A DNA stretch of 57,281 bases. It comes from an uncultured Pseudomonadales bacterium. GTDB lineage: Bacteria > Patescibacteriota > Microgenomatia > UBA1400 > UBA12108. The position numbers were made by a program, and so were the translations under genes. The notes beneath the pieces were generated by a model. That model had not been told where the DNA came from, searched no databases, and saw nothing but the letters and a program-made list of their open reading frames with translations. Below, piece by piece: positions 8,150 to 40,972 of this stretch (position 1 is its first letter; each line of letters opens with the position of its first letter). Location of the stretch: positions 14,137 to 71,417 of the forward strand of contig CAZSVV010000003.1 of the NCBI GenBank assembly GCA_964610445.1, in the 5' to 3' direction.

Positions 8150-8153
8150 ATCT

Positions 8154-9065
8154 ATGACAAAACAATTCGCTTCCTCCATCTCAGTAGCCATTCCTTCTTG
8201 GAATAGCGCAAAACAACTCAAGAAAAACTTGCCATCAGTAATTAGTGCTGCCAAAAGAGTTAATGCCGAGATAATCATTGTCGATGACGCGAGTCAGGAT
8301 GACTCAGTCTCTGTGATCAAAGGAGATTGGGGTTATCCGATCAAGCTAGTCGTCAATGAGACCAACTTGGGTTATGGAGAGACCATCAACCGAGCCGTCT
8401 CACTCGCTCAATCAGACTTAGTAATTATCTTAAATACTGATGTCTCGCTAAGCGTTGATTGTATAGAAAAATCAATTCCATATTTTGAGGATCCTACTGT
8501 CTTTGCGCTTGGCTTAAACTCTGGCGAGGGTTACATGCGGGTAAAATGGGAGAGGGGTTTATTTCATCATTTCAAAGGTATTACTGGAGTTGAGGATGAG
8601 AGTGTCACACCGTTTAGTCTCTGGGCATCAGGCGGCCAGAGTGTAATTAGACGCTCTTATTGGCGTAAGCTCGGTGGGATGTGTCCACTCTACAAGCCAT
8701 TTTACTGGGAAGACACAGACCTGGGCTACGCTGCCTGGAAGAGGGGATGGAAAATAATCTGGGGACGTGACTGTCACTGTGTCCATGATCACGAGTCTAG
8801 CGTGATTGCTGGTAGCTTTAGCAAGAGTGATGTCATGGATATTGCCCAGCGCAACCAATTCCTCTTTGTCTGGAAGAATATTAGTGATCCAGGACTACTT
8901 CTGACTCATTTACTCTATTTACCAGTTTATCTTCTCCGTTATCCCAAAACTCTGATCTCTGCACTGAGGCTACTACCAGATGCGCTTTATTATCGCAAAC
9001 TGCAGTCGCAGTACTGGACCAAGCGAGATCAGGATATACTAGCCATATGGAGAGCCTCAAAGTGA
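8154..9065 (+). CDS. Glycosyltransferase family 2
   Basis: Motifs 'IIIVDDASQDDS', 'LGYGETINR', 'ILNTDV' and 'YWEDTDLGYAAWKRGW' are present. Confidence 0.8.
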   Translation: MTKQFASSISVAIPSWNSAKQLKKNLPSVISAAKRVNAEIIIVDDASQDDSVSVIKGDWGYPIKLVVNETNLGYGETINRAVSLAQSDLVIILNTDVSLSVDCIEKSIPYFEDPTVFALGLNSGEGYMRVKWERGLFHHFKGITGVEDESVTPFSLWASGGQSVIRRSYWRKLGGMCPLYKPFYWEDTDLGYAAWKRGWKIIWGRDCHCVHDHESSVIAGSFSKSDVMDIAQRNQFLFVWKNISDPGLLLTHLLYLPVYLLRYPKTLISALRLLPDALYYRKLQSQYWTKRDQDILAIWRASK

Positions 9066-10687
9066 TTATTAATTTTATTAAAAAACACTTCTTAATCCTG
9101 ACTCTTGCTCTGGCACTACTACTGCGCATCTTCAATCTCTCAACCAATCCGCCCGAGCTCAATTGGGACGAGGTTAGTATGGGCTACACCGCCTACTCAC
9201 TACTAGAGACTGGTCGAGACGAATGGGGTGAGCCATGGCCCATCCTCTTTCGCTCATACGGCGAATGGAAGTCACCAGTTTATATCTACCTACTCATCCC
9301 ATCGATCAAAATCTTTGGGCTTAACGAATGGGGAGTCAGGTTGCCAGCCGCACTCTTTGGGGTCCTGACCGTCTACTTGACCTACCTTCTCGCTACTCGA
9401 CTCTATTCTCGCCGGGTAGGGCTACTATCAGCAATGTTGCTTGCTGTCTCACCTTGGCATCTCATGCTCTCTAGACCGGCCTTCGAAGCAGGGGTAGCAC
9501 TTGCCTTAATACTAGCCGGCTTGCTATTTTTCTTAAAAAGTATCGAGAAAACTACTTTTAAACTTTACCCTTTATACTCAGCATTGCTACTCGGTTTATC
9601 CGTGCACACTTACCATAGTGCCAAGATTGTAGTTCCACTTTTAATTCTATTTTTAGGTTATGTATATCGCAAATACCTCTCACCCAAAACAATTCTATTA
9701 CCAGTTCTAATCCTCACTTTCTTTGCCTACCCGATTGCTCGTGACGTTGTAACTGGCAAGACTCAGGCTCGCTACAACCAGGTAGGGATCACGACCGATG
9801 CCGAGCTGACCGAGAGGTTCTTTAGATATAGGAACACCGCTCCCTTTGGTGAATTAGGTAACAAAATTGTTTTTAATAAATACACCTTTATACTCTCCAA
9901 GGGTTTCTCTAACTGGACATCCTATCTCTCACCACATTTTCTGCTCGGCTCTAGTAGTATTAGAGCGCAGCACAGTATTCCGTTTCGGGGTGTTTTATAT
10001 TTTGTTGAGTTTGCACTATTTATCTATGGCTTACTCTTGCTCAAAAATTATAAACATCCTTTGCGCTATCTCCCTGTTTTTGTCATTCTGGTGGGCTTTA
10101 TACCACCAGCTCTCACCAAAGATATCTATCATGTCTTGCGAAGTATACTGACTCTTCCTTGGTGGCAGGTGTTCGCCGCCATCGGACTCGTCGAATTAAT
10201 AAAGAACAAGTTCAAATATTTAAAATTGGTATATTGGTTATTGGTCATTGAAATAATCGCGTTTATCGCGATTTATTTCTTATGGTATCCAAAAGCCTTT
10301 GCCCGTGACTGGCAGTACGGTCACAAAGCTATAGCCGCATGGGTACAGGCTAACGAGAGTAAATACAAGCAGGTCTATATGACCAAAGCTTATGGTGAAC
10401 CCCAACTCTTCCTAGCTTTTTACAACAAATGGGATCCAACGTGGTATCAGTCGGAGAACAAAAAACTAATCGAATATGAGGCTCGTGGCTACCCTTGGCT
10501 TGACCAGCTACCAGAATATAGCCTAGGCAAATACACTTTTCGAGATATTAACTGGCCCGTTGATAACGGCAAGAACGAAATGGTCTTTATTGGCAAAGGA
10601 GACGATTTTTGGCTCGATACTCCCCATCCGCTAAGTATCAACTTCCCTGATGGTACCGCTGCTTTCCATATCTCAGAGGGTAAATAG
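9047..10687 (+). CDS. GT-C fold membrane glycosyltransferase, PMT-like (GT39-type)
   Basis: The first-loop signature 'LNWDEVSMGYTAYSLLETGRDEWGEPWP' is followed by 'VRLPAALFGVLTVYLTYLLA' and 'SPWHLMLSR'. The C-terminal domain contains 'YGEPQLFLAFYNKWDP'. It is a paralog of 15678.., 17471.. and 19275... Confidence 0.75.
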   Translation: MESLKVIINFIKKHFLILTLALALLLRIFNLSTNPPELNWDEVSMGYTAYSLLETGRDEWGEPWPILFRSYGEWKSPVYIYLLIPSIKIFGLNEWGVRLPAALFGVLTVYLTYLLATRLYSRRVGLLSAMLLAVSPWHLMLSRPAFEAGVALALILAGLLFFLKSIEKTTFKLYPLYSALLLGLSVHTYHSAKIVVPLLILFLGYVYRKYLSPKTILLPVLILTFFAYPIARDVVTGKTQARYNQVGITTDAELTERFFRYRNTAPFGELGNKIVFNKYTFILSKGFSNWTSYLSPHFLLGSSSIRAQHSIPFRGVLYFVEFALFIYGLLLLKNYKHPLRYLPVFVILVGFIPPALTKDIYHVLRSILTLPWWQVFAAIGLVELIKNKFKYLKLVYWLLVIEIIAFIAIYFLWYPKAFARDWQYGHKAIAAWVQANESKYKQVYMTKAYGEPQLFLAFYNKWDPTWYQSENKKLIEYEARGYPWLDQLPEYSLGKYTFRDINWPVDNGKNEMVFIGKGDDFWLDTPHPLSINFPDGTAAFHISEGK

Positions 10688-10688
10688 G

Positions 10689-12179
10689 ATGAATTATCTC
10701 CGTCTCTTTCTGTTATCCCTCGTAGGATGCATTTTTGTTGTTACTCTACCTTTTTACCGAAGTCATATTTTTGCAGTACATTTTGTAGATGAGGATGACA
10801 ATATTGTGATAGGCAATTATGTGAAAGAAGGCAAAAAGCTCTACACCGATATATTTTCACAACATCAACCCAGTATGTTTGTCGTATCTGCTGCACTGCA
10901 GGATTCTATATTCGTCAACAACGTTCAGATGCTAGTTCAGAGACATCGCGAACTAATGATTGGTTGGAGTATCTTGTGGATAATCTTCTTAGTAGCTAGA
11001 TTTGGATTTCCTCTTTTTATGACCACTAGCGTTCTCGAACTGTCAAAGATAACCTTACTAGGCAACCTCTTTCTGGCAGAAAGCTTAGTAGTCTACCCAC
11101 TCATCTATTTGTTAGCCCATTTCTTTCTGGCTCCCGCAACCACTCAGACGATTGAAAAAATATTCTTAACAACTGTTTTCTGGTTATTGTGGTATAGCTT
11201 AACTCCTCTCTGGCCAGTATTAACCCTATTACTTGTACTCTACGCTCACAAACATCAAGGAGATGTTGGCCTGTTCAGAATGCTAATCATTACCGGATTA
11301 ATATTCACTATTTGGCTAATGAACATCACCAATTTGAGTGACTATTTCGTTAGCGCGATCTACATAAACTATAAGTACTACATTCCACTAACAACACCAT
11401 TCGGATTTACAGAATCGATATACAAATCCTTATTTGCGCCCCTCTTTGCTTTGTTTTCAACCAAATCAGGTGAATTGCTAATGCTAATACGGTTGCTATC
11501 TCTCGGATTTCTAATCAATCTTCTATATCTGATCAAAGACAAAAATTATCTAAGGGTGATTTTTATCATCTCTATACTCTGGCTGACTTCTCTAAGATAC
11601 ATAGACCCAGCGGGATTATTGTATGGTGTGTTTCATATGCTTCCATGGTTTGCTGTTCTTATATTATTCTGTTTTATTAATGCCTCTACCCCAAAGATTA
11701 TTAACATAATAATGCTTGGCATCATTTCACTAGCTTCGCTGCAGGTAGCAAGAACTAACCTCTTTGACATTCGTGTTCCAGAGGATGATTATTATGTTAA
11801 CTTTTCACCTAAAGCAGATATCCGCGAGGCAGTAAAAATTATTTCCGAGTCGTCGCCACAGACAATCTGGGTCGAACCTGTTATGTATTATCCACATTGG
11901 AGGACTACTGCACAGCCGTATACCAAAATGGTCAATTACTATGGCTGGATGGATCAAACAGAGCCAATGAAGAGTGAACTTGATCACAACCTAGGCGTAG
12001 AGCTCCCGACGATTGTCTATGCAGAGACCAAACTTGGAATAGGTGCTTACATGGATCAATATACTCCGATAACACGAGAGGGGAAACCTAGCAGACTGTA
12101 CCTACGGATGGACCAAGTTGATAGGTTGAGCAGTGAGACTCGCGCACACCTGCTTTATTATAGATTTGAAATTAACTAA
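10689..12179 (+). CDS. Polytopic membrane protein, possible GT-C glycosyltransferase
   Basis: The ATG at 10689 lies 1 nt after the upstream stop, whereas the listed start at 10650 would overlap by 38 nt. The acidic loop 'HFVDEDDNIVIGNYVKEGKKLYTDIFSQHQP' follows TM1. There are many hydrophobic helices and a soluble C-terminus. Confidence 0.45.
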   Translation: MNYLRLFLLSLVGCIFVVTLPFYRSHIFAVHFVDEDDNIVIGNYVKEGKKLYTDIFSQHQPSMFVVSAALQDSIFVNNVQMLVQRHRELMIGWSILWIIFLVARFGFPLFMTTSVLELSKITLLGNLFLAESLVVYPLIYLLAHFFLAPATTQTIEKIFLTTVFWLLWYSLTPLWPVLTLLLVLYAHKHQGDVGLFRMLIITGLIFTIWLMNITNLSDYFVSAIYINYKYYIPLTTPFGFTESIYKSLFAPLFALFSTKSGELLMLIRLLSLGFLINLLYLIKDKNYLRVIFIISILWLTSLRYIDPAGLLYGVFHMLPWFAVLILFCFINASTPKIINIIMLGIISLASLQVARTNLFDIRVPEDDYYVNFSPKADIREAVKIISESSPQTIWVEPVMYYPHWRTTAQPYTKMVNYYGWMDQTEPMKSELDHNLGVELPTIVYAETKLGIGAYMDQYTPITREGKPSRLYLRMDQVDRLSSETRAHLLYYRFEIN

Positions 12180-12193
12180 GATATACTAAACAT

Positions 12194-13021
12194 ATGGAAA
12201 ATACTCATATCAGTCTCAGTGTCGCGTTAGCCGTCTATAACGAAGAGACATCTCTCGCTGAGTGTCTAGATTCGATCAAAGAGATCGCTACTGAGATAGT
12301 GATAGTTGATGGCAATTCTAGCGACAAAACAGTGGAGATCGCCGAGTCATATGGGGCTAAGGTTATCCATGAGTCCAATCGACAGAACTTTCATATCAAC
12401 AAACAGATTGCGATTGATGCCTGTACTAGTGACTGGGTACTGCAGTTAGACGCAGACGAGCGTGTTAGCTCCATGCTAGCCCACGAAATAAAACAGGTGA
12501 TATCTAAGGATTTATCCGCCGGAACATTAGCACAGGCGGATGCCTACTACCTCAAACGCCGCAATTACTTTCTAGGGCGTTTCATGAACAAAGGAGGCAT
12601 GTATCCTGACCCTGTAATCCGTTTATTCAAAAAGGGCAAGGCCAAGCTACCCCAAGCCAGTGTGCACGAAATCATGACGGTTGATGGCACGCTTGCTTGG
12701 CTACAAAATGATCTGATCCATATCGCTGATCCCACCTTTACTCGCTACCTACTACGTAGCAACCGGTATACCACCCTCACAGCACTAGACTATGCTAAGA
12801 GTGATATAGGGACGACCACTCCTATTATCCTCAATTATATGATCTTCAAGCCACTATTTCGTTTCCTCTCGATTTATATCCGCCACAAAGGTTTTCAGGA
12901 TGGATTTCCTGGTTTTATTTTTGCACTATACTCAGGGCTCCATATCGCTAGCTCATACGTCAAATACTGGGAAAAAAAGACAACTAATCAATCTACCACC
13001 ATGAAACATGATTGGAATTAG
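12194..13021 (+). CDS. Glycosyltransferase family 2 (same subgroup as 1799.. and 5002..)
   Basis: Motifs 'LSVALAVYNEE', 'VIVDGNSSDKT', 'LQLDADE', 'SNRYTTLTA' and 'GFQDGFPG' are present. Confidence 0.75.
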   Translation: MENTHISLSVALAVYNEETSLAECLDSIKEIATEIVIVDGNSSDKTVEIAESYGAKVIHESNRQNFHINKQIAIDACTSDWVLQLDADERVSSMLAHEIKQVISKDLSAGTLAQADAYYLKRRNYFLGRFMNKGGMYPDPVIRLFKKGKAKLPQASVHEIMTVDGTLAWLQNDLIHIADPTFTRYLLRSNRYTTLTALDYAKSDIGTTTPIILNYMIFKPLFRFLSIYIRHKGFQDGFPGFIFALYSGLHIASSYVKYWEKKTTNQSTTMKHDWN

Positions 13022-13022
13022 T

Positions 13023-14672
13023 ATGAAGAACCTACTCCAAAAATACTTCCCAATCCTACTTATTCTAATAGCGGGTCTGTTTTTGACTTCGAGTTTGCTT
13101 AAGTCAGGTTGGTATCTATCGCACGATGGAATATTTCATATCTACCGTACCGAAGAGGCTCTCTCCATGCTCAAGCTAGGTCACTTCCCACTTCGCTGGG
13201 CAGGCAACTTTGACCAAGGATTTGGTATCCCACTATTTAGTTTTGTATACCCCCTACCTTATTACCTAAGCTCTATCCTCTCAGTCTTGATAGGGACTAT
13301 GTGGTCACTAAAATCAATCACAATCATGTCTTACCTACTTGGTGGTTTGGGGATGTATGCACTTTTATCTAGTCGCGGCCGAAGCTTTGGTTTGTTTGGC
13401 GCTCTTATCTTCCTTTTGACCCCATACCAATTTCTAAACATTTTTGTGCGTGGGACACTAGGCGAGACTCTCGCTATCGGTCTTATGCCCTGGGTTCTCT
13501 ATAGTTACCATAATTTAAAGCAATCAAAAAATGTACTAAGGTGGTACCATCCGTTCCCGCTAGCTCTCGTCCTACTATCCCACAATTTCCTAGGCATACT
13601 CTTTGCCGCATTTCTTTTTGGCTACATGCTAACAGATCGATCATCCCTAAAACGATCTCTTGGTAGTCTCTTGATGTCTTTTGGCTTAAGCGCATTCTTT
13701 ATTCTCCCAATGATTATCCAAAAAAACCTACTATACTCATTCGAATACAAAGATCTGACTTTTCGCTTTGACCAGCACTTTGTTACGCTAAAGCAACTTT
13801 TGTATAGCAAATGGGATTATTGGTATTCGGTGCCTGGAGATAACGATGGTATGTCGTTCCAGTTAGGGATAGCACAGCTGGGGGTTGCAGCCTTTTCAAT
13901 CCTGGTAATACTATGGCGCAGTCGCAGTTTGTCTAACTTATATCTTGTTCTCGCATACGTTGGTACTGTATTTCTGATGCATAGCAAGAGTTTCTTTATT
14001 TGGGAGAGCTTGCCACTACTTCAATCTGTCCAGTTCCCTTGGCGTTTTCTTTTTATGCCTCTGATCCTAACACCTCTTTTGAGTGTAGCGTTGTTTAGAC
14101 AGTTCAAATCCAGGAACTTGCGGTACGTCTTAATGCTTATTTTTATAATTGTTGCATTTATTAATATCCGCAACTATCGCAATCCCCAGCAATTCATGGA
14201 CAACACTACTTATACTGACTTATATCGGTTGTATTACAACAAGACTAGTACAACATTTCGTACAGAAATATTACCTAAATGGAGCGTACCAGACGAGCGT
14301 TACAAAACAGATGAAGTGCTGATCAACTCTGGCAACATGACAATAGATTCACTTAAGTATGACCCTTTATCAATCATAGTGACTATAAACAACAAACCTG
14401 ATGAGAACGAGGGTAGAGTTACGATCCTACGCAACTATTATCCCGGCTGGTCGGTCAATATGGATAAGTCAAAGAATATTCCTATAGAGCCGACTCCAGA
14501 TGGTATGATAATGCTCAAGCCAGAACTCGGGGTGCATGAATACGAGATAACAATGAAGAGTACTGTAGTTGAGATGTTGGGCAACACACTATCAGGACTC
14601 ACTCTAATAACATTAGGATATTTATGGTACACAAACAAAAAAGTATCGCATTCAAAGGCAAAGTCGAAATAA
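13023..14672 (+). CDS. YfhO/COG5617-like polytopic membrane protein (putative GT-C glycosyltransferase)
   Basis: The ATG at 13023 lies 1 nt after the upstream stop; the listed start at 13008 is an alternative. After TM1 comes 'SHDGIFHIYRTEEALSMLKLGHFPLRW'. There are at least 10 helices, and the beta-rich C-terminal domain ends in 'YYPGWSVNMD...' plus a terminal TM helix. Confidence 0.55.
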   Translation: MKNLLQKYFPILLILIAGLFLTSSLLKSGWYLSHDGIFHIYRTEEALSMLKLGHFPLRWAGNFDQGFGIPLFSFVYPLPYYLSSILSVLIGTMWSLKSITIMSYLLGGLGMYALLSSRGRSFGLFGALIFLLTPYQFLNIFVRGTLGETLAIGLMPWVLYSYHNLKQSKNVLRWYHPFPLALVLLSHNFLGILFAAFLFGYMLTDRSSLKRSLGSLLMSFGLSAFFILPMIIQKNLLYSFEYKDLTFRFDQHFVTLKQLLYSKWDYWYSVPGDNDGMSFQLGIAQLGVAAFSILVILWRSRSLSNLYLVLAYVGTVFLMHSKSFFIWESLPLLQSVQFPWRFLFMPLILTPLLSVALFRQFKSRNLRYVLMLIFIIVAFINIRNYRNPQQFMDNTTYTDLYRLYYNKTSTTFRTEILPKWSVPDERYKTDEVLINSGNMTIDSLKYDPLSIIVTINNKPDENEGRVTILRNYYPGWSVNMDKSKNIPIEPTPDGMIMLKPELGVHEYEITMKSTVVEMLGNTLSGLTLITLGYLWYTNKKVSHSKAKSK

Positions 14673-15697
14673 TCGGCAAAAGTCCCTACGCTGGATCCGG
14701 TCCCCGCGGCATCGACGTCTATACCAGACAGCTAAGCGTTCACCTCTCTCGCGACCTCCCACACGAATCACTTATCGTCAGTCGCGAGGTAACTAGTAAC
14801 ATACCAGTCAACTTAGTTCACTATACTTTCTTTGACCCATTCTTCTTAACACTTTGGGGTAAGGTACCTAAGAACTCACCATTTATAGTAACTGTTCATG
14901 ATCTCATCCCTCTACGCTTCCCAGAACACTTTCCCAGTGGGTTGCGAGGGAGGATCAAGTTCTTCTTACAAAAGAGGGCACTCAAACAAGCATCTGGGAT
15001 CATTACTGACTCGATTGCCTCAAAAAAAGATATAGCAAAATTTGTAGATTACCCGGAGTCTCAAATTCACGTAGTCCCTCTCGCGGCCGGGAGCATTAGC
15101 GCCACAGTAGCTCTAGGTCGTACCATTGCCAAAGAATATGACCTGCCTGAGCGCTACATTCTCTACGTTGGAGATATCAATTGGAATAAGAATATAGTCG
15201 GGTTAATAAACGCTTATAGTAAGATTACAGATGATAAAACGCAGTTAATCCTCGTCGGCAAAGCCTTTGCCTCAAAGTCTAGTACTCCAGAGACTACTGC
15301 GATCAACGAGGCTATTTCTGCAAGTCCCAAGAAATCGTTGATCAAAAAACTAGGTTTTGTGCCAACTCATCACTTAAGCGCGATATATCGCGGCGCTACT
15401 CTATATGTGCAGCCATCTTGGTATGAGGGGTTTGGTTTCCCTGTCATCGAAGCGCTGATTCAGGGTACTCCTGTGCTCAGTAGTAACCAGGGTAGTCTCC
15501 CCGAAGTAGGAGGGGAATATGTCCACTATTTTGATCCAAGTGTCGGTAGTGATCTATCCGACAAACTGAGTTTGCTCATCAAAAACGAGAACCTTCGGAT
15601 TAAATATCGCGATTCAGGCATAGCCTGGGCCAAGAAATTTACTTGGAAAAACGTCGCTCACGAGACAATGCTCGTCTATGAAAAATACTCACGCTAA
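14624..15697 (+). CDS. Glycosyltransferase family 4 (mannosyltransferase-like subgroup)
   Basis: 'SWYEGFGFPVIEALIQGTPVLSSNQGSLPEV' is present, along with 'YILYVGDINWNKN'. It is a paralog of 44987.., 46082.. and 55109... Confidence 0.85.
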   Translation: MVHKQKSIAFKGKVEIIGKSPYAGSGPRGIDVYTRQLSVHLSRDLPHESLIVSREVTSNIPVNLVHYTFFDPFFLTLWGKVPKNSPFIVTVHDLIPLRFPEHFPSGLRGRIKFFLQKRALKQASGIITDSIASKKDIAKFVDYPESQIHVVPLAAGSISATVALGRTIAKEYDLPERYILYVGDINWNKNIVGLINAYSKITDDKTQLILVGKAFASKSSTPETTAINEAISASPKKSLIKKLGFVPTHHLSAIYRGATLYVQPSWYEGFGFPVIEALIQGTPVLSSNQGSLPEVGGEYVHYFDPSVGSDLSDKLSLLIKNENLRIKYRDSGIAWAKKFTWKNVAHETMLVYEKYSR

Positions 15698-17462
15698 AAT
15701 TATAATAGCTATTTCATACTTTCTACTATTTATACTCGCCTTGTTACCAAGAATGTATGCTCTTGGGACTATTCCAACTGCGCTTTCTCACGATGAGGTT
15801 GATGTAATTATCCAAGCGCATAGTATTCGACTAACAGGTAGAGACTTATCTGGCTCTTGGTCACCGCTTACTCTAGTTCCAAATGATGGTTTGATGGCAG
15901 AGCTATCAGGGGCTATCAATCTGCCAGCACTTGCCGTCTTACCCAACACACTATTTGCTGCTCACTTCACGACTGCCTTGCTTGGGAGTCTATATCCTAT
16001 TCTCATAGTAACATTGCTAATTTCCTGGGGATTAAACAAAAAAGCTTCCTGGCTAAGCGGAGTTTTGCTCGCCCTCTCTCCATGGCATTTACTCTTTAGT
16101 CGAACTTCGTTAGAACAGCCGGCGAGCCTATTTTTCTATACTCTTTCTTGGATTTTTCTCACAAAAATATATGCAAATAAAAACAATTTAAAAGCACTCT
16201 TAATTTCGCTTATTTCCTTCGCAACTTTCTACACGTTAGGTTTCTATACATACCATGGATACAAATTTTCACTACCACTGCTAACTATCATTATCGCTTT
16301 TTATAATTACTTTAGGACATTACATCATCACAAATTAGTAATAATTACGATTGTACTCACGGTTATAGGGAGTTTATATCTTAGGACATTCTTGAATATT
16401 GGCAGTTACTTAGGGAGGCAAAGCGAGATTGTATTCCTAGACCAGTCGGTATTCTCTAAAAAAGTTGATCTTGATCGTCGTTTAAGTATCATGCCAAAAA
16501 GACTCAATGAATTTTTAGTTAATAAGCCGCTTGCCATGCTGCATCTAGCGATCGATAAATACATGTCTCTGCTCTCGCCTCAACAAATGTTTATGAATGG
16601 AGAGAACAATGGTGTATTCTCAACTGGTCGTACAGGGTATCTCTACGTCTTTTTACTCCCTTTTGTTTTAATCGGTGTGGTTTGCATGGTCATCTCTGGT
16701 AAAAAAACAGAGACTTTTATTAGTCTACTAGTATTTATTTCTCCAATAGCTACGATAATTCATAAAAACGGTTCATTTGCGTTTAGATCAGGGATTTTTG
16801 TCGTTCTATTAACTATTGCAGGCGCCTACGGAATAGCATATTTAAATAGCCGATATCCAAGGTATAGGATTAGTACACTTGCAATAGTATTAACATTTAT
16901 TAGTTTTATCCACTTTAGCTATATATATCTCGGTTATTATCCCGTTGAGAGTTCTCGAGCTTACTTTTTCGCTGACAGTACACTCGCTACTTATTTATCT
17001 CATAGAGGTGAAGAAAAAATCTTAGTAATCGACCCTCAACCGAGATACATTATGAGCTACCTAGTATTAACAAATAAGAGTGTCACACTGGATACAATCA
17101 GACCTTTGATTGGGAAATATAGCACAAATGAAGAGCAAAACATTTATGAGATCGATAATTTAACTATCAGAAGAGATTGTCCATCCGACAACATTAATGC
17201 TTACGATACTGTAATTGCAGATTTTACCCTCATAGATGGTCTGGGAGGTTGTATTCCACTCCACAAACTAAAATCATCAAAGATACTTATTCGTAATATT
17301 GTAGATCCGCTCGATGGAGGAGTTATTAAGCAGATTTACGGCGACAGAATCTGTGAGAATACAGCTGTTGCTAGATACGTTAATTTATCAAGAATAAACA
17401 CTTTTGCAATTAATAAGATGTCTAAGGTACAATTCTGTTCTAGCTGGATTATCGAAAATTAA
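15678..17462 (+). CDS. GT-C fold membrane glycosyltransferase, PMT-like; first of a tandem triplet
   Basis: The first loop reads 'LSHDEVDVIIQAHSIRLTGRDLSG', followed by 'LSPWHLLFSR'. 594 aa, polytopic, with a C-terminal soluble domain. Confidence 0.65.
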   Translation: MKNTHAKIIIAISYFLLFILALLPRMYALGTIPTALSHDEVDVIIQAHSIRLTGRDLSGSWSPLTLVPNDGLMAELSGAINLPALAVLPNTLFAAHFTTALLGSLYPILIVTLLISWGLNKKASWLSGVLLALSPWHLLFSRTSLEQPASLFFYTLSWIFLTKIYANKNNLKALLISLISFATFYTLGFYTYHGYKFSLPLLTIIIAFYNYFRTLHHHKLVIITIVLTVIGSLYLRTFLNIGSYLGRQSEIVFLDQSVFSKKVDLDRRLSIMPKRLNEFLVNKPLAMLHLAIDKYMSLLSPQQMFMNGENNGVFSTGRTGYLYVFLLPFVLIGVVCMVISGKKTETFISLLVFISPIATIIHKNGSFAFRSGIFVVLLTIAGAYGIAYLNSRYPRYRISTLAIVLTFISFIHFSYIYLGYYPVESSRAYFFADSTLATYLSHRGEEKILVIDPQPRYIMSYLVLTNKSVTLDTIRPLIGKYSTNEEQNIYEIDNLTIRRDCPSDNINAYDTVIADFTLIDGLGGCIPLHKLKSSKILIRNIVDPLDGGVIKQIYGDRICENTAVARYVNLSRINTFAINKMSKVQFCSSWIIEN

Positions 17463-17470
17463 TACTTAAT

Positions 17471-19273
17471 ATGAATATCATTAAAAAACTGATTACTCCA
17501 GTATTCTTTGTTTTTATCTCACTAATAATCATCTTCCCTCGTTTTTACCAGTTAGGTGACACTCCACACGGCCTTCATATCGATGAAGTTAGTTTTGCCG
17601 CCGACGCCAAATCACTAGCCGAAACTGGCAAAGACACTTGGGGTGTGACTATGCCTCGGGTTTTCAAAGCGTTTGGCGAGTATAAGGCTCCTGGACTTAC
17701 TTATAGTATGGCTTTCTGGGCCAAAATTACTGGAGTTATGAATAACTATGTCGCTCGACTCCCATCCGCAATTGCGGGCCTTACCATGATTGTAATGCTC
17801 GTACTAACACTCAAAACACTTGTACCCTCGATGAGTCCGGTTCTCTTGATGACTATAGCTCTGATTCTCGCATATAGTCCCTGGCATTTTGACATGTCTC
17901 GTATTTTTTATGAAGCATTTAGTGCTACTGCCTGGCTCTCTATCTCGATTTATTTCGCTACCAGAATATTATCATCAAACAAACACAATAAATATGACTG
18001 GCTCCTCATGCTCACGACTGCTTCTATTGCTGGTTACTATTACTCTTCTCTTCGTTACGTCATTATCATTTATGTATTAATAGTATCTTTCCTCTTAGAG
18101 ACTAAGTTCAAAGATATACTTAAGCGAAGTGTAGTAGCGATTATAGTAGTCACTTTGGTTGGTGTTGGATGGGTAAGCGACTTAATGTCTGATGTCGGCT
18201 TAAATCGACTCTACTACTACCAGCAAAAAGCCGATTTTGGATCCGCTCTAGAGATAGATGAGAAACGTCAGTTCTGTTACCTTGCCTTGAATCGTGATTC
18301 AGAATCAACTAGAGGATGTTATTTACTTTGGAATAAGCCCGTCTCCCGAATAACTGGAATGATAACTACCACTTTGACCTATCTTGGGACAGATTTTCTG
18401 TTTATAAAAGGTGTGAGTGAGTATGGATTTGATAGTCAGTATGGAGCTTTTTTACCACCACTTGTACTAGTTTACTTGATAGGCCTGTACTACGCTCTAA
18501 CTAGCTTAGTACGTTACTTGACCTCACAATTCAAGAAGAATAGTCGGCAATTAAATCGTGAAGATAAGGTATTTGTTCTATACCTAGGTCTAGCATTACT
18601 CTCACTAGTTCCCGCTGCAGTTGCAATGAATCTGAATATGAGAATGGCAATGGTTAGTCTGTATATAATCTCTATTTTGATTGGCTATGGACTTTATCAG
18701 TTTAACGAGTACCTAAAACGAACAGTAAAACCAATCATAAAAGTAATTGCTTATTGTTTACTCGGTGGGGCATTTCTATTTTACGCGATTCAATCAACTG
18801 TTCATTATTGGTTTGTATTTACCAAAAGCAATGACCTTCAGTGGACCTCTGACGCTGGGTCAATATTTGACTATGTTAAGAGTGTCTCAAAAAGTTATGA
18901 CCGCATAGTCGACACAGAGCTACATGGCCCGTTAGCCCCATACTTTTACGGAGATATTACAACTGATGAAGTTCATAAAGGTAGGTACAGTAATCCTGAC
19001 GCACTTGGCTTTACTTACCTAATAAAGGCTGGAAAATATGAACTTAACCACATCAATATCAAGGATCTTGCCTGCGAAGTGGTTAGTAAAAATGATAAGA
19101 GGAGAACGCTAGTAATAACTAATCCATATCCAGAACTCGTTTCAATGCGAAAATATGAATCAAGATCTTGGAACGGCGCCTTGCTGCTTCACGAGGTATA
19201 TGATCTATCTGATGTTATCTCATATATGGAGCGCTCCGAACCCAACTTTATGACTCGCTGTGGACCAAAATAA
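17471..19273 (+). CDS. GT-C fold membrane glycosyltransferase, PMT-like; second of the triplet
   Basis: 'LHIDEVSFAADAKSLAETGKDTWG', 'ARLPSAIAGL' and 'YSPWHFDMSR' are present. 600 aa and polytopic. Confidence 0.7.
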   Translation: MNIIKKLITPVFFVFISLIIIFPRFYQLGDTPHGLHIDEVSFAADAKSLAETGKDTWGVTMPRVFKAFGEYKAPGLTYSMAFWAKITGVMNNYVARLPSAIAGLTMIVMLVLTLKTLVPSMSPVLLMTIALILAYSPWHFDMSRIFYEAFSATAWLSISIYFATRILSSNKHNKYDWLLMLTTASIAGYYYSSLRYVIIIYVLIVSFLLETKFKDILKRSVVAIIVVTLVGVGWVSDLMSDVGLNRLYYYQQKADFGSALEIDEKRQFCYLALNRDSESTRGCYLLWNKPVSRITGMITTTLTYLGTDFLFIKGVSEYGFDSQYGAFLPPLVLVYLIGLYYALTSLVRYLTSQFKKNSRQLNREDKVFVLYLGLALLSLVPAAVAMNLNMRMAMVSLYIISILIGYGLYQFNEYLKRTVKPIIKVIAYCLLGGAFLFYAIQSTVHYWFVFTKSNDLQWTSDAGSIFDYVKSVSKSYDRIVDTELHGPLAPYFYGDITTDEVHKGRYSNPDALGFTYLIKAGKYELNHINIKDLACEVVSKNDKRRTLVITNPYPELVSMRKYESRSWNGALLLHEVYDLSDVISYMERSEPNFMTRCGPK

Positions 19274-19274
19274 T

Positions 19275-20900
19275 ATGTATAAATATATTCTAGTCGCAAT
19301 CTTGGCTACCTCTGCCTTGCTCCGGTTAACCTTCCTCAATTCTCATATGGACACGCTCTATGGCGACGAAGTAGCCCTGGGTTATAACGCGTATGCAATC
19401 AAAGAAACACTGCATGATGAATTTGGTCGCTTTATGCCGCTCCAGTTTGAGAGTTGGGGAGACCAAAAAAATCCAGTCTATATCTATGCAACAGCTCTAG
19501 TTCAGCTCATAACTGGCCCTACTATGGCGAGTGTTCGCATCCCCTCAGCCATAGCTGGGATTCTCGCAGTCTACCTGACTTACAGGCTAGCGATACTCCT
19601 CAAGCTCGGTAGTGTTGTTGCGCTGGTTTCGTCGTTCTTCTTAGCAGTTAATCCATGGCACATTCATATTAGTAGAGGTGGTTACGAAGCAAATGTTGCT
19701 CTAACTCTCGGCCTCGGCAGTGTAGTCCTGCTCCTAACTCAAAGGTATGCACTCTCCGCCTTGCTACTCGCGATCTCTACTTATACCTACTACACCACCA
19801 AAATGTTTGCCCCATTATTACTACTGTTTACCTGGATCTATATGATCAACTGGTCCAAGTACAAAAATAGTATCAAACCATTTATCAAATACTGGGTGAT
19901 AGCTCTTATACTCGTACTCCCCATAATTTATCTTGCCTTATTTAAGGGAGGACAGGTCCGTTTTCAGAGCATTAATATCTTTGTCGACAAGACAGTAACA
20001 CCTAGGGTGGAGAGAGCGCGCAACTTTTTTGATAACCCTGATAGCCTAGGAGCCAAGTTGAGCGAGAATCGATTTACCTATCATCTTAGCGATTTTGTCA
20101 TGTACTACTTAGAAAATTTTTCGGGACAATTCCTATTTGTGGGCGGGGATAGTAACGTCCGCTATGGGCTCGCTGGTCACGGCATGCTGTATCTCCTGGA
20201 CGCTCCACTGATCTTAATGGGACTAATCTTGCTCTACCAAAAAAATCGCCGGGCATGGTATTTCCTCTTTGCCTGGCTTATACTCGCCCCACTCCCAACC
20301 GCTCTTGTAGGTCGCGCCTACGGACTGCGTAGCCTAGCCATACTCCCGATCCCACAGATCCTGGCTGCCTACACGCTTTTTTCCTGGTATCAATCAACCA
20401 AAAAATCAAAAATTATTACAGCGTTCTATATACTATTTACAATCAGCTATATACTCAGTATTTCTAACTGGCTCCATCGCTACATATATCAGTATCCTGC
20501 CTATGGTCGCTACTGGTACGATGCTCCAATGCAAGATGCAGTGACTTACGCCAAGGAGAGAGAAGATAAATATGACCAGATTATCATCAGTCAGAGTTAT
20601 GGAGAGGTCTCGATGTATTATGCGTTCCTAAACAAGATCCACCCCGATATCTATCGACAGGCCAAAGCTAACAAAGTTGCTGTCGACGGCGTACCGATGG
20701 TCAAAATAGGCAAATACTACTTTGGCGATATCAGGCCAAAAGGGCCGATTGAAAAGATGGATATCCCACATAATACCTTGATCCTAGTTCAGCCGTATTT
20801 TGAATACGGCGAAGGAACAATCATTGCTCGTGATGATGGTAGACCTATCTATCGTGTTTTCGATTTTCCGACAGTCCACATGAAAGCCAAAGATCAATGA
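19275..20900 (+). CDS. GT-C fold membrane glycosyltransferase, PMT-like; third of the triplet
   Basis: The ATG at 19275 lies 1 nt after the upstream stop; the listed start at 19260 is an alternative. 'LYGDEVALGYNAYAIKETLHDEFG', 'VRIPSAIAGILAVYLTYRLA' and 'NPWHIHISR' are present. The C-terminal 'YGEVSMYYAFLNKIHP' matches the 9047.. paralog. Confidence 0.75.
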   Translation: MYKYILVAILATSALLRLTFLNSHMDTLYGDEVALGYNAYAIKETLHDEFGRFMPLQFESWGDQKNPVYIYATALVQLITGPTMASVRIPSAIAGILAVYLTYRLAILLKLGSVVALVSSFFLAVNPWHIHISRGGYEANVALTLGLGSVVLLLTQRYALSALLLAISTYTYYTTKMFAPLLLLFTWIYMINWSKYKNSIKPFIKYWVIALILVLPIIYLALFKGGQVRFQSINIFVDKTVTPRVERARNFFDNPDSLGAKLSENRFTYHLSDFVMYYLENFSGQFLFVGGDSNVRYGLAGHGMLYLLDAPLILMGLILLYQKNRRAWYFLFAWLILAPLPTALVGRAYGLRSLAILPIPQILAAYTLFSWYQSTKKSKIITAFYILFTISYILSISNWLHRYIYQYPAYGRYWYDAPMQDAVTYAKEREDKYDQIIISQSYGEVSMYYAFLNKIHPDIYRQAKANKVAVDGVPMVKIGKYYFGDIRPKGPIEKMDIPHNTLILVQPYFEYGEGTIIARDDGRPIYRVFDFPTVHMKAKDQ

Positions 20901-21553
20901 AGTTATACGTAGTAGTACCAGCATATAACGAATCAAGATTTATCGGTCGCTTTTTAGATAAATTAACTAAGAAAACTAAAAACATTCTTGTGATAGATGA
21001 CGGAAGTCGGGATCGTACAACAGATATTGTAAAGTCAAAAGGAATCAAAGTACTTACTCATATCACCAATCTGGGCAAGGGAGCTGCATTAAAGACTGGT
21101 TGTGAGTATGCGTTTAATAGACTTGGTGCTGATGGAGTAATCATTATGGATGGAGATGATCAGCACGACGTCTCAGATATCGCACAGTTTACCAAGACAC
21201 TGAGGGGAGGGGCGCAGATTGTTTTAGGAGTTAGAGCGATGGATAGTCGGATGCCCCTGACCCGGTTACTAGGCAACAGATTTACTTCTGTTTTAATCAA
21301 CGTTCTTTTTGGCCGTTACATCTCTGATGTTCCAAGTGGTTTTAAAGCTATGACTAAGAGTGCTTACAAAAAGCTCTTATGGCATAGTAGCGGTTATGAG
21401 GTCGAGACAGAAATTGCCGTAAGAATCGCAAAAAGTAAAATAAAATACGTCGAGATTCCAATCAACACTATCTATCATGGCAAAGAATATGGATTTAACC
21501 TGATCGATGCCATCCGTATTATAATAAAGATACCTTACTGGATATGGAGTTAA
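20897..21553 (+). CDS. Polyprenyl-phosphate sugar synthase-type GT2 (DPM1/Ppm1/GtrB-like catalytic domain)
   Basis: Motifs 'VVVPAYNESRFI', 'VIDDGSRDRT', 'NLGKGAALKTG', 'IIMDGDDQHD' and 'VLGVR' are present. It is only 218 aa and has no C-terminal TM helices. ATGA overlap with the last GT-C of the triplet. Confidence 0.75.
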   Translation: MKLYVVVPAYNESRFIGRFLDKLTKKTKNILVIDDGSRDRTTDIVKSKGIKVLTHITNLGKGAALKTGCEYAFNRLGADGVIIMDGDDQHDVSDIAQFTKTLRGGAQIVLGVRAMDSRMPLTRLLGNRFTSVLINVLFGRYISDVPSGFKAMTKSAYKKLLWHSSGYEVETEIAVRIAKSKIKYVEIPINTIYHGKEYGFNLIDAIRIIIKIPYWIWS

Positions 21554-21558
21554 ATAAT

Positions 21559-21879
21559 ATGATTGGAATACAACTTTTTTCGGTAGTGTTTATCTTCATT
21601 ATGCTCTACGTAGTTCGCATTCATTACAAAAAGCAAGAACTACCAAAAGTAGAAGCTCTGTTTTGGAGCATAGTCCTACTATCTCTAGCTACTATCGTAA
21701 TAGTACCTGGTAGTGCTGACGCAGTTAGAAACCTTTTTCAGGTATCTCGACTGCTCGACGTAATCATGATAATTGCCTTTATGGGTACCTTTATATTCTT
21801 AATAGAGAATCGAATTCAGATTAGCAAGCTCCGTTCCAAACTAGAAGTCTTGACTCGAGAGCAAGCTATGAACGATTAG
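21559..21879 (+). CDS. Small (about 106 aa) three-helix membrane protein, DUF2304-like
   Basis: A GGAG lies 8 nt upstream of the ATG at 21559; the listed start at 21544 is an alternative. Three hydrophobic helices are followed by an amphipathic tail 'ISKLRSKLEVLTREQ'. DUF2304-type proteins typically follow DPM1-like GT2 genes. Confidence 0.45.
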   Translation: MIGIQLFSVVFIFIMLYVVRIHYKKQELPKVEALFWSIVLLSLATIVIVPGSADAVRNLFQVSRLLDVIMIIAFMGTFIFLIENRIQISKLRSKLEVLTREQAMND

Positions 21880-21880
21880 T

Positions 21881-22657
21881 ATGAAGTTACCAAAAATTTC
21901 AGTCGTTACCCCTAGCTATAATCAGGCCAAGTACATAAGAGCTACAATTGACAGCATCCTCTCCCAGGATTATCCCAATCTCGAATATATCGTAATGGAT
22001 GGTGGTAGTACTGACGATACCGTCGAGATTCTCAAGAGCTATGGTAACAAAATACAATGGGAGAGTAAAAAAGATAATGGACAGACACACGCAATTAACA
22101 AAGGGTTCCGTCTAGCAACAGGCCAAGTACTCGCATACCTCAACTCCGACGATGTATATCTCCCAGGCACACTCAGAGCAGTAGGGGAGTATTACGCCAA
22201 GTCGAAAGCCGATTGGATTACAGGCGACTGCATAGTGATTGATGAAAACGGTAATCCTAGTCGTAGTAACTGGCTAATCTCTGGATATAAGCGTCTGCTT
22301 ATGAAGTTATACAGTCGAACCACACTTATGATTGCCGATTCCATGTTGCCTCAACCATCAACTTTCTGGTCCCGCGACGCTGCTAATGTTGTAGGGGAGT
22401 TTAACGAAAAATATCACTACGTCATGGACTACGACTACTGGCTAAGATTATCTAAGCATTATAGACCCCACGATCTCAAGGTAGCACTCTCTGGTTTTCG
22501 TGCCCAACCAGACAGTAAGAGCGAAACTAGTCGTCCAAAGTTGATGGCAGAGGGTGAACTGGCGTTAGTTGCGAATGGGGCCGAGACCTGGCATCTCATG
22601 CTCCATCGTGCACATTCGGCGGTTGTACGCCTCATCTATAATATTCTTAAGCAGTGA
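21881..22657 (+). CDS. Glycosyltransferase family 2
   Basis: Motifs 'ISVVTPSYNQAKYI', 'IVMDGGSTDDT' and 'AYLNSDD' are present. Confidence 0.8.
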   Translation: MKLPKISVVTPSYNQAKYIRATIDSILSQDYPNLEYIVMDGGSTDDTVEILKSYGNKIQWESKKDNGQTHAINKGFRLATGQVLAYLNSDDVYLPGTLRAVGEYYAKSKADWITGDCIVIDENGNPSRSNWLISGYKRLLMKLYSRTTLMIADSMLPQPSTFWSRDAANVVGEFNEKYHYVMDYDYWLRLSKHYRPHDLKVALSGFRAQPDSKSETSRPKLMAEGELALVANGAETWHLMLHRAHSAVVRLIYNILKQ

Positions 22658-22680
22658 TTACTTTTTAATAAATCAAGTCG

Positions 22681-24060
22681 ATGAAATTAAATAAATTAGC
22701 ATTCATCGTAAGTTTAGTACTTTGTATAACTTTTGCATTAGCGGGTACATTTATATCAGTTAATCGATTTTATCAATTTGATTCTTTCTACTATGATTTT
22801 GGTATATTTGATCAAGCGATTTGGCGAGTTTCACAACTTAGAGCACCAGTAATCGATCATTATGTCGTTGGTGGATCATGGATATTTGGGGATCATTTTA
22901 GCCCAGCATTAATGTTGCTCGCACCCATATATTGGATTACACATGCTCAAGAGGCGATATTCTTTGTTCAAGCTGCATTTGCCGCCCTAGCCGGGTTTAT
23001 CTTGTATAAGACCTCATACGCACTGACCAAGAATAGTTATGTCTCAATCTCAGTTCAAATAGCTTTTTATCTCTTTACCGGACTACAAAACGCCGTGATT
23101 ACAGATATCCATGAGTTAACATTCGCGACTCTCCCCCTCTCGATAGTGCTATATTCGCTCGTCACGCTTAACAAGCGTATGTACATATTTTCATCTCTCT
23201 TTCTACTCCTATTCAAAGAATCAACATTTCTAGTTATTTGTGGCATTCATTTCTATACATGGTTAAAAGTAAAAGAATGGCGAAATGTGACGATTATTCT
23301 TTCAACGCTTAGTATTATTTATGCATACAGCATAATATCCTACGTAATCCCTGCTTTTTCAAACTACTATCAGTATAACTTTTTGGCAGGTCATACCGTG
23401 CAGAGTGCCGTAAGCGCTCTCTATGACCATCCCATCAAGATAAAAACACTTGTCGACAGTTTCACAAGCTTCTCTTTTACTGCGATATTTACACCATCAC
23501 TCTGGCCGACGTACTTAGTTCATTATTGGACACGGTTTTTATCTTCGGCTGGCTCGCGTTGGGAAATTGGGCTTCACTACAATGCTGAGATTGCCCCGAT
23601 TTACGCTTTCTCCCTGATGCTAGTCTTAGATAAATTAACTAAACATAAAAAGACGATAACTCAGTTAGTGATAGTTTTTGTTGTTACTACCTTTGCACTC
23701 TATCAGAATTATGCTCGGCTAAAAATGCCATTCTTAATGGCCATTAATCCTGCGCTCTACCTTGCATCAGATCGAACAATCGAAATACGACAATATCTTA
23801 AGCAAATGCCAGCAGATCCAGTAATTATGGCACCAAATCATCTTGCAGCCCACCTCTCACACAAAAACGTGCGACTCGCTCGCGATAAGTATAGCGATTA
23901 CGATCCAGAATATATAATTTTTGATACTAATCCAGATCAAAATGCCAACAACTGGTATGGTTTAAAGGACAAAGATCAGTTTATGAAGAATGTATCTGCA
24001 GATTTTGATTATAAGCTGATACAATCAATATCTAGCTACCTAGTATACAAGAAGAATTAA
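22681..24060 (+). CDS. DUF2079-like polytopic membrane protein (putative GT-C-type)
   Basis: The signature-like loop '[13 protein letters not shown]' follows TM1. 459 aa with many helices and a short soluble C-terminus. Confidence 0.6.
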
Positions 24061-39694: not shown

Positions 39695-40972
39695 ATGTTC
39701 TCTAATATCTCTAAGCTCACAAAATCTAGCGGTCTAAAATCAGCAGCACTCATGACTGTCGGCAACGTAGGCTCGACAGGCATTGCTGCCGTTGCCATGA
39801 TTATCTTTTCTAGACAACTTGGTCCAGAACAATTTGGTATCTTCTCAGTGCTCTTTTCACTCATGCTAATAATCTCTCGTATTGGAGATATGGGCATCAA
39901 CATTGCTGTCTCTCGCGCTATTGCCCAAAATCAGAATAATAAAACCCTCAACCTAGCCTTTGCTCAAAACGGAGCTTTTCTAAAAGCAATTATTATGGCA
40001 TTGGTGGTAATTACTGGCATGATCACTACTCCGTTGATCACAGAGACTCTGCTTACTCTAACTCCAGATTTTGTCCCTATGGTGCGAGCAGTCATGCTCC
40101 TTTCGATCTCTGTAGTTGTCTACGAATACGTCAACTCTCTTCTTCAGGCCAGACAGTATTTTGGCCTCTCGGTCTTGACTAATACTGTTCAATCTTCTCT
40201 CAAGCTGCTCTTGGCACTAGCTACGCTAGTATTTGTAGGTATAAACCTAAGTACTGTCACCCTAGGGTACATGATCTTGCCACTTATCGGAGCTTGCGTT
40301 GGTTTTTTTGCGATCAATGTAAGGGAGCTCTTGCCTATTTATAGTCCAAAAATCACAAAATCGTTAATTAATGTGGCTCGATGGACCAGTATCTCGATTC
40401 TTGCTAGTGCAGTCGCAGAGAATGTCGACGTTTTAATAGTCCAAAAGTATCTCTCAGTCCATGAGACGGGACTATATGCTGCCGCAACTAGGATTGCGAC
40501 TGTTACTTCACTCATTGGCTGGTCGCTCGGTACAGTATTGAACATGCGGGTAGCAAAATATAAAGACAAAGTGAACTTGGATCGCTATCTAAAAAAAGGC
40601 ATCATGCTAGCAATCGTTTCTCTCTTAGCGACTGCCGCACTCTGTTTGATATCTTATCCAGTCGTTACGTACACTATCGGACCAGCCTACCTGAGCGTCG
40701 TCCCTACATTAAATATTCTCTTAATATCTACCGCGTTCTTAACAGCTACTACACCGTTTGTTGCTTTGTTTTATGTCTTTGATTACCCGCGATATTTTGC
40801 AGTCTCTGGGATTATAACTGCTCTTAGCTTACTTATCTCAGATATTGTCTTGGTACCTACCTACGGGTTAATCGGTGCAGGGTGGGCGAGGGTGATTACT
40901 AGGCTGGTAGTCGGTATCTATACTGTATATATTGCTTATTCCTTATACCACAAGACTTATGGCAAAAAGTAA
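39695..40972 (+). CDS. Second Wzx-like flippase (MOP superfamily)
   Basis: 425 aa with about 12 helices. The N-terminus 'GSTGIAAVAMIIFSRQLGPEQFGIFSVLFSLMLIISRIGDMGINIAVSRAIAQ' is typical of polysaccharide biosynthesis (Wzx) proteins. Confidence 0.7.
   Translation: MFSNISKLTKSSGLKSAALMTVGNVGSTGIAAVAMIIFSRQLGPEQFGIFSVLFSLMLIISRIGDMGINIAVSRAIAQNQNNKTLNLAFAQNGAFLKAIIMALVVITGMITTPLITETLLTLTPDFVPMVRAVMLLSISVVVYEYVNSLLQARQYFGLSVLTNTVQSSLKLLLALATLVFVGINLSTVTLGYMILPLIGACVGFFAINVRELLPIYSPKITKSLINVARWTSISILASAVAENVDVLIVQKYLSVHETGLYAAATRIATVTSLIGWSLGTVLNMRVAKYKDKVNLDRYLKKGIMLAIVSLLATAALCLISYPVVTYTIGPAYLSVVPTLNILLISTAFLTATTPFVALFYVFDYPRYFAVSGIITALSLLISDIVLVPTYGLIGAGWARVITRLVVGIYTVYIAYSLYHKTYGKK

Follow-up and report, generated by a model that had tools for sequence, protein, structure and literature searches.

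Four genes in a 57,281-nucleotide stretch of DNA from an uncultured member of the Patescibacteriota (contig CAZSVV010000003.1 of assembly GCA_964610445.1), here named paralogs A, B, C and D, are ancient paralogs of the GT-C superfamily of membrane glycosyltransferases. By analogy with characterised systems, we consider it likely that their products act on the extracytoplasmic side as transferases of sugars carried on polyprenyl phosphate, and that they differ in their acceptor sites. The whole stretch is referred to as the window throughout. Paralogs A, B and C are adjacent to one another, while D is located further upstream (Table 1). A first-pass annotation, made from the sequence alone, had described A, B and C as a tandem triplet of PMT-like genes with D as a fourth copy; the four open reading frames (ORFs) are present on the forward strand as it described them, with C readable as 546 amino acids from a GTG or as 541 amino acids from an ATG start codon.

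All-against-all blastp among the ORFs of the window yielded significant matches for every pair of paralogs (A-B 3e-13, A-C 1e-12, A-D 1e-15, B-C 7e-19, and B-D 1e-18), with C and D as the strongest pair (2e-52, 32% identity over 489 amino acids). Identity between the paralogs amounts to 20-32%. When the alignment of A orthologs was compared with that of C orthologs, profile against profile, the probability was 100% and the E-value 8.7e-72 over approximately 503 columns, with the matched region running on into the initial portion of the C-terminal domain. Chance matches between unrelated families thus do not account for the resemblance, and the sequence comparisons confirm A, B, C, and D as true homologs. 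When a profile of the four was run against the genome, full-length matches were confined to A-D themselves, accompanied by two matches to the N-terminal part only. PMT_2 domains occur at 13 places in this genome, ten of which are on the contig of A-D; inside this larger set the four constitute, as judged from sequence, a distinct subfamily.

The N-terminal signature which had been proposed as common to all four genes is real, but it is not uniform. The element x-D-E-V is invariant across A-D and (S/N)PWH...SR is found in each of them, whereas C carries T-L-H-D in place of the T-G-(R/K)-D motif, and A has HFTTA where B, C, and D show R(L/I)PSA. The motif near the C-terminus that had been assigned to the products of D and C was recovered as a YGE... 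element common to both.

Members of the subfamily were identified in 30 of the 31 sampled genomes of the order, with one to eight copies per genome that are mostly arranged in tandem. The main tree was computed with IQ-TREE from 73 rows, with support given as ultrafast bootstrap/SH-like approximate likelihood-ratio test (SH-aLRT); a quick tree comprised 107 rows. In the main tree the paralogs fall into four separate clades. Paralog A groups with five orthologs of the same family (100/100) and, beyond these, with rows of the families f2 and f9 (100/100). Paralog B groups with 12 orthologs of the family (100/100) and with a single row of family f13 (97/95), while C and D are joined by seven and 17 orthologs, respectively (100/100 each). 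C and D appear as weakly supported sisters (89/66), in agreement with their being the closest pair in blastp. Each clade includes orthologs from other genera of the family, and for each paralog the ortholog in the nearest genome reveals an identity of 88-97%.

Gene order tells the same story of retention. The syntenic block around A-D reads GT2, D, an unassigned polytopic ORF, GT2, YfhO-like, GT4, A, B, C, GT2, DUF2304, GT2, and DUF2079. This order is kept in four genomes of the same genus (G001, G002, G003, and G004) and in three genomes of other genera (G014, G008, and G007), while more distant genera contain reduced versions of the block. Because orthologs of every copy exist in other genera, those of A and B also in other families, and gene order is conserved, the duplications are, on the evidence of sequence, old and the copies stably retained; the great age suggested by the first-pass annotation is thereby borne out. 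Its tandem triplet holds true as a description of three adjacent genes, but not as the outcome of a simple local triplication, since A, B, and C are not mutual closest relatives and C is nearest to the non-adjacent D. On a wider scale, 150 genomes of the phylum were sampled, and every one of the seven that belong to the same class had full-length multi-copy arrays. Outside the class, 20 of 143 genomes gave matches, mostly a single one covering the N-terminal part only. With arrays in every same-class genome and mostly single partial matches elsewhere, the multi-copy expansion is typical of the Microgenomates-type class. A literature search on GT-C expansions in the candidate phyla radiation/Patescibacteria yielded nothing specific.

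Three of the sampled genomes show peculiarities within or next to these arrays. In G011 (contig C2), which is labelled as a different genus, the ortholog of C is identical to the copy of G001 (contig C1) and the orthologs of B are nearly identical, while a second, more distant set is located on another contig; this pattern hints at a contig sorted into the wrong bin or at a transfer that happened very recently. G004 (contig C19, 4011-7644) carries two B-type copies side by side, an extra lineage-specific duplication. In G002, the closest relative (contig C8, 7350-8421), the ortholog of the GT4 gene located upstream of A is split into two overlapping ORFs, which may reflect a frameshift or an assembly error.

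With respect to fold, the predicted structures place A and C in the GT-C superfamily, class A fold. AlphaFold2 models were built from ortholog alignments for C as the best-annotated copy (predicted local distance difference test score 92.7, predicted template modelling score 0.91) and for A as the most divergent copy (91.4 and 0.91), while B and D were placed in GT-C by homology. Counting transmembrane segments by hydropathy is too crude to give the number of helices, and the secondary structure of the models was used instead. Searched against the PDB with Foldseek, both models matched AglB, STT3, PglB, ArnT, and Pmt4 with probability 1.00 and E-values from 8e-8 to 7e-5. The first three of these were the top matches of either model, followed by weaker matches to ALG9/ALG12, DPY19, AftA/AftB, and Emb proteins. 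A structure-based choice among PMT, ArnT, and oligosaccharyltransferase was discarded, as Foldseek does not discriminate between them at template modelling (TM) scores that all lie at approximately 0.4-0.5.

Family models agree with a membership in GT-C to different degrees. In the Pfam scan D, B, and C exceed the PMT_2 (PF13231) cut-off of 26.1 bits (58.5, 28.7, and 27.6 bits, respectively), whereas the sole match of A, to PMT (PF02366), remains below threshold (17.3 bits against a cut-off of 22.7). Nevertheless, A is homologous to the PMT_2-scoring paralogs, because it matches C in the profile-profile comparison described above. The NCBIfam scan provided no useful family for A-D; weak matches of D to Agl23 (4e-10) and archaeal STT3 (1e-4) are far under the cut-offs. 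Homologs in the sources, which derive from Candidatus Microgenomates, Woesebacteria, and other Patescibacteria, are named 'glycosyltransferase family 39' or 'ArnT-like' (Joint Genome Institute). The MIR domain and the C-terminal PMT_4TMC module, which eukaryotic PMTs possess (the former in their large lumenal loop), were not matched in A-D by Pfam at E <= 0.01, and the WWD motif (of WWDxG) that oligosaccharyltransferases carry in a large C-terminal domain is present in none of the four. The designation PMT-like is therefore merely a Pfam label: it is backed by PMT/PMT_2 scores for B, C, and D, but A stays below threshold and the fold resembles STT3, AglB, and ArnT equally or more.

Each paralog begins with a polytopic membrane module. 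The C-terminal 110-170 amino acids (approximate values) form a small alpha/beta domain in the models of A and C, and we infer that it is located outside the membrane. A search with the last 127 amino acids of C against 1.84 billion representatives resulted in 18 matches, all of them at or near the C-terminal end of proteins of the same subfamily or of short fragments thereof. This domain is thus not a shared module, its sequence matches being confined to its own subfamily.

Residue conservation was studied in an alignment of 104 family members from 31 genomes, numbered according to C read from its GTG. A core of residues is conserved to at least 90% and kept in all four clades: R22, D36-E37, D53, P60, P132-W133, S138-R139, E143, Y177, R234, G308, G321, and Y408. 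D36 is present in 99, E37 in 103, and D53 in 102 of the 104 members. The D36-E37 pair is situated in the first outer loop, just after the first transmembrane helix, and presumably provides the catalytic base and the donor site, as in PMT, ArnT, and STT3. Since the family-wide core residues are kept in every clade, all four paralogs look catalytically competent from their sequences.

Apart from this core, the clades carry fixed replacements at positions that are otherwise conserved in the family. Clade A shows G67D, K70M, Y76V/A, G86P, and R93H, which remodel the first outer loop; a beta-hairpin of this loop is seen in the model of C and not in that of A. Clade B is distinguished by P185I/L and R357M, clade C by P30M, G51L, and G372T/A. 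Cysteines follow the same division. In paralog A, four invariant cysteines lie within the longer C-terminal domain. Paralog B possesses two conserved cysteine pairs, one in a loop (269/283) and the other in the C-terminal domain (535/597), and C and D are devoid of cysteines. The conserved pairs of A and B fit an extracytoplasmic location of these loops and C-terminal domains. Within clades, conservation of the C-terminal domains equals that of the membrane parts. Retention of the core together with clade-specific replacements would fit a division of labour among the paralogs.

The gene directly following C encodes a soluble GT2 protein (20897; Table 1), the start of which overlaps the stop codon of C in an ATGA, as had been noted before. 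This GT2 matches the Pfam family Glycos_transf_2 (1e-23), contains no hydrophobic segment, and is matched over the full length by the NCBIfam models of AglJ (9.5e-32), PpgS (6.7e-31), and a haloarchaeal dolichyl-phosphate hexose transferase (5e-16). The next gene, overlapping by 10 nt, encodes a DUF2304 protein (PF10066, 60 bits against a cut-off of 25.5, 3e-16) which is hydrophobic through residue ~93 and exists as a single copy in the genome. GT2 and DUF2304 genes follow directly after the C ortholog in all eight genomes in which C was found (G001-G004, G007, G008, G014, and G011). Along this line, seven other families of the order have subfamily arrays with a GT2 at the end, and this GT2 is most similar to the one behind C. 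By sequence, the two genes correspond to the GacI/GacJ (PpgS/Rv3632) arrangement. For the remaining GT2 proteins of the window, the match to the synthase models is limited to the N-terminal nucleotide-binding part, or different models are matched. The first-pass annotation had regarded the GT2 behind C as the sole DPM1-like lipid-sugar synthase; this is correct for the window, but the contig carries two further candidates at a distance of 6-13 kb upstream of it. One of them (contig positions 592-1755) is a GT2 fused to the only GtrA/DPMS membrane domain of the genome. The other (contig positions 7355-8077) is a GT2 of 240 amino acids whose end overlaps a PMT_2 gene (8053-9555), thus representing a second GT2/GT-C pair.

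The best characterised counterpart of this arrangement is the Gac system of S. pyogenes, in which GacI synthesises N-acetylglucosamine (GlcNAc)-phosphate-undecaprenol and is bound in a complex by GacJ, a DUF2304 protein of 113 amino acids with three helices (bioRxiv 10.1101/180810). GacJ lowers the Km of GacI for undecaprenyl phosphate from 18.7 to 1.1 uM and raises its Vmax several hundred-fold (bioRxiv 10.1101/180810). GacL, a GT-C enzyme of the PMT_2 type, then attaches GlcNAc to polyrhamnose outside the membrane (bioRxiv 10.1101/180810; PMC8035078). The PpgS/Rv3632 pair of M. tuberculosis acts like GacI/GacJ and is part of the parallel system PpgS/Rv3632/Rv3779 (bioRxiv 10.1101/180810; PMC8035078). 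GacL, CsdD, CsdF, and GtsC are all counted among the GT-C enzymes of PMT_2 type (PMC8035078). The genes studied here resemble the Gac system in that a short GT2 without a membrane anchor of its own is followed by a DUF2304 protein of ~110 amino acids and three helices, in that PMT_2-type GT-C enzymes belong to the same operon, in that the locus includes a candidate flippase of the Wzx type, and in the setting of a cell-wall polysaccharide cluster; the genus and three other genera share the order A-B-C-GT2-DUF2304. They differ from it in that four divergent GT-C paralogs plus further GT-C genes face one GT2/DUF2304 pair, instead of a single GT-C. In addition, similarity to the characterised proteins is at the family level only, and the C-terminal domain is specific to the subfamily.

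Several GT-C enzymes within one cell are not without precedent. In L. lactis, the GT-C enzymes of CsdAB, CsdCD, and CsdEF, together with the flippase CflA, use polyprenyl-phosphate-sugar donors and each serve a different acceptor (PMC8035078). Paralogs A-D may be comparable to this system, although there each GT-C has its own GT2, while here three GT-C genes share an operon with one GT2/DUF2304 pair. In mycobacteria, the donor made by Ppm1 is used by many GT-C mannosyltransferases with different acceptors (PMC3485146). ArnT (GT83; PDB 5ezm, 5f15), which transfers 4-amino-4-deoxy-L-arabinose (Ara4N) from undecaprenyl phosphate to lipid A, is similar in overall architecture, with ~540-600 amino acids, a polytopic GT-C(A) module, and a small C-terminal outer domain, and it provides the best TM-score when both lengths are used for normalisation (0.49/0.49, model of C). 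Unlike in the case of ArnT, no genes of the Ara4N pathway are seen among the ORFs of the window, and in a search of the sequence profile against PDB sequences ArnT (5ezm) was the sole match at a non-significant E-value of 0.73.

From these comparisons a route can be proposed. The GT2 behind C, aided by the DUF2304 protein, would load a sugar residue from a nucleotide sugar onto polyprenyl phosphate at the cytoplasmic face. The lipid-phosphate-sugar would then be flipped across the membrane, with the Wzx-type proteins (325 and 39695) or the upstream GtrA domain as candidates for this step. On the outer face, each of A-D would attach the sugar at an acceptor position of its own on a surface glycopolymer. 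This polymer would itself be put together by the numerous GT2 and GT4 enzymes encoded in the surrounding locus, which spans at least 71 kb. Besides GT2 and GT4 genes, this locus encodes Wzx-type flippases, a Wzy_C protein, WecB, and methyltransferases. The logic would be that of multi-component transmembrane glycosylation as known from GacI/GacJ/GacK/GacL, and the layout, one donor synthase with many GT-C enzymes, may be likened to mycobacterial lipoglycan synthesis and to the ALG3/9/12 steps in the lumen of the endoplasmic reticulum (ER). Several points weigh against this route. In the fold comparison oligosaccharyltransferases rank highest, and these enzymes use pyrophosphate-linked donors. 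Adjacency is weak evidence for a specific pairing where the whole locus is glycan-related, and in the presence of two DPM1-like GT2 genes upstream, some of the four paralogs may rely on a donor other than the product of the GT2 behind C. This GT2 scores 110 bits against NCBIfam equivalog cut-offs of 325-370 bits, such that its sugar specificity is not readable. The clade-specific substitutions, finally, indicate divergence and not a changed specificity. The same limit applies to the sub-functionalisation assumed by the first-pass annotation, for which the kept core and the clade-specific replacements speak, but only as signs of divergence.

Different explanations of the four genes have to be weighed against polyprenyl-phosphate-sugar transfer to different acceptors of a glycopolymer. 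A-D might be true PMT-type protein O-glycosyl(mannosyl)transferases that modify emerging secreted or surface proteins such as S-layer proteins, pilins, or lipoproteins, with one set of substrates per paralog. Like the PMTs (GT39; Pmt1/Pmt2 6p25, Pmt4 9i5k/9e61), they have an Asp-Glu pair where the first outer loop begins, and three of them (B, C, and D) score with Pfam PMT/PMT_2; the significant fold matches include Pmt4 and Pmt1/2, and homologs of A-D bear the name of glycosyltransferase family 39. Actinobacterial PMT homologs glycosylate proteins with polyprenyl-phosphate-mannose. However, PMTs are matched less well in fold than STT3/AglB and ArnT, with just ~270 columns aligned in the case of yeast Pmt1/2/4, the MIR and PMT_4TMC domains are missing from the Pfam results, A does not reach the Pfam thresholds, and the setting is that of a polysaccharide-type locus with Wzx, Wzy_C, and many GT2/GT4 genes. 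Furthermore, characterised bacterial PMT_2 enzymes encoded beside GacI/GtrB-type GT2s act on glycopolymers (PMC8035078). Altogether, we regard protein O-glycosylation as unlikely. We hold it for very improbable that A-D act in the manner of oligosaccharyltransferases or ligases, transferring a preassembled glycan en bloc from polyprenyl pyrophosphate to protein or cell wall and leaving the product of the neighbouring GT2 unused. AglB, STT3, and PglB lead the Foldseek results of both models, and Wzx-type flippases and a Wzy_C protein in the locus imply pyrophosphate-linked intermediates, but the WWD motif is lacking in all four, the C-terminal domain is small (~110-170 amino acids) and matches its own subfamily only, the TM-score normalised on target length is equal or better for ArnT (0.49 versus 0.32-0.44), and a monophosphate donor is suggested by the close linkage to a pair of GacI/GacJ type.

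Another explanation retains the lipid-phosphate-sugar donor and changes the task: A-D would use it processively, or as a sequential line that builds the whole polymer outside, comparable to EmbA-C, AftA-D, or Mpt, rather than decorating a preformed chain. Many GT-C genes (13 PMT_2 places in 842 kb) accompanied by few lipid-sugar synthases, as well as AftA, AftB, and Emb among the weaker fold matches, would be in line with such an activity; about 20 cytoplasmic GT2/GT4 genes of the locus, which are able to build the chain inside, speak against it, and we consider it improbable. An extended version can be drawn as a speculation, which we would not expect to hold: A-D and ~10 other GT-C genes might build most of the surface polymer extracytoplasmically from one to three polyprenyl-phosphate-sugar donors, as in mycobacterial lipoarabinomannan synthesis or ER-lumenal N-glycan extension, with clade A as a previously unrecognised GT-C subfamily having a new mode of acceptor binding. 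For the latter, we refer to the first outer loop of clade A without the family hairpin motif and Arg93, and to its four-cysteine C-terminal domain. At the other extreme, the paralogs could be redundant or decaying copies of one enzyme, amplified recently in tandem for phase variation or dosage and without any division of labour. Three copies are indeed adjacent on the same strand, but paralog identity of just 20-32% contrasts with orthologs at 88-97% in the nearest genome that reach into other genera and families, every copy is intact with its conserved core, and the gene order is fixed. This explanation is hardly credible, and recent tandem duplication or redundancy is ruled out by trees and synteny. 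Transfer of polyprenyl-phosphate-linked sugars to different acceptors thus remains the interpretation we favour.

The features discussed are collected in Table 1.

Table 1. Coordinates of paralogs A-D and associated features within the window.
Feature	Position	Strand	Description
Paralog A	15678-17462	+	594 aa; membrane glycosyltransferase with predicted GT-C(A) fold; remodelled first outer loop; longer C-terminal domain
Paralog B	17471-19273	+	600 aa; predicted GT-C (PMT_2)
Paralog C	19275-20900 (ATG, 541 aa) or 19260-20900 (GTG, 546 aa)	+	Predicted GT-C (PMT_2/PMT)
Paralog D	9047-10687	+	546 aa; predicted GT-C (PMT_2); orthologs in nearly every sampled genome of the family
GT2	20897-21553	+	218 aa; soluble; GacI/PpgS/AglJ-like; candidate polyprenyl-phosphate-sugar synthase
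DUF2304 protein	21544-21879	+	111 aa; small membrane protein; GacJ/Rv3632-like candidate partner of GT2
Conserved syntenic block with A-D, GT2, and DUF2304	8154-24060	+	Gene order kept in relatives
GT4	14624-15697	+	Directly upstream of A; 20-nt overlap with A

The contig of 71.4 kb is composed of the window (1-57281) and 14.1 kb upstream of it, and belongs to an assembly of 842 kb in 39 contigs with a completeness of 84%. The window represents a single long glycan-biosynthesis locus with 49 ORFs of at least 150 amino acids, all but one of which are on the forward strand. The entire contig, approximately 8% of the assembly, is devoted to glycan biosynthesis; it encodes ~10 GT2 and ~10 GT4 proteins, two Wzx-type proteins, a Wzy_C protein, WecB, epimerases, and methyltransferases. 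A priming phosphoglycosyltransferase was not seen within the window. The Wzx-type proteins are located at 325-1782 and 39695-40972, neither of them adjoining A-B-C. Packing of the triplet is tight: A and B are separated by 8 nt, B and C by 1 nt, or they overlap by 14 nt if C starts at GTG. Public collections contain paralog C in its 541-amino-acid form, starting from the ATG at 19275. Further PMT_2-type genes of the window start at 3585, 6803 (a weak match), 43657, and 51519, and a DUF2079 gene at 22681. Unassigned polytopic ORFs are found at 10650, 13008, 25954, and 33877. The first of these (10650-12179, 509 amino acids) keeps its position after D in several relatives. Neither Pfam nor NCBIfam assigns it to a family, and it may represent a further, strongly diverged GT-C.

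In kind, A-D add little that is new, as multi-component transmembrane glycosylation by GT-C enzymes is already known. New are a GT-C clade that had escaped annotation and a list of paralog-specific positions. For paralog A, public collections contain 57 identified orthologs. Without exception, these are called 'hypothetical protein' or remain unnamed, and most of them have no Pfam domain; clade A can now be annotated as GT-C glycosyltransferase. The clade-specific residues provide a short list of candidate positions for acceptor or donor specificity. The host group consists of tiny organisms thought to depend on other cells, for which the cell surface is probably central to the lifestyle. By analogy with the characterised systems, A-D probably add lipid-carried sugars to this surface, and surface glycosylation of the Microgenomates type would accordingly be founded on sets of GT-C paralogs that are old, stably passed on, and linked to a lipid-sugar synthase of the GacI/GacJ type.

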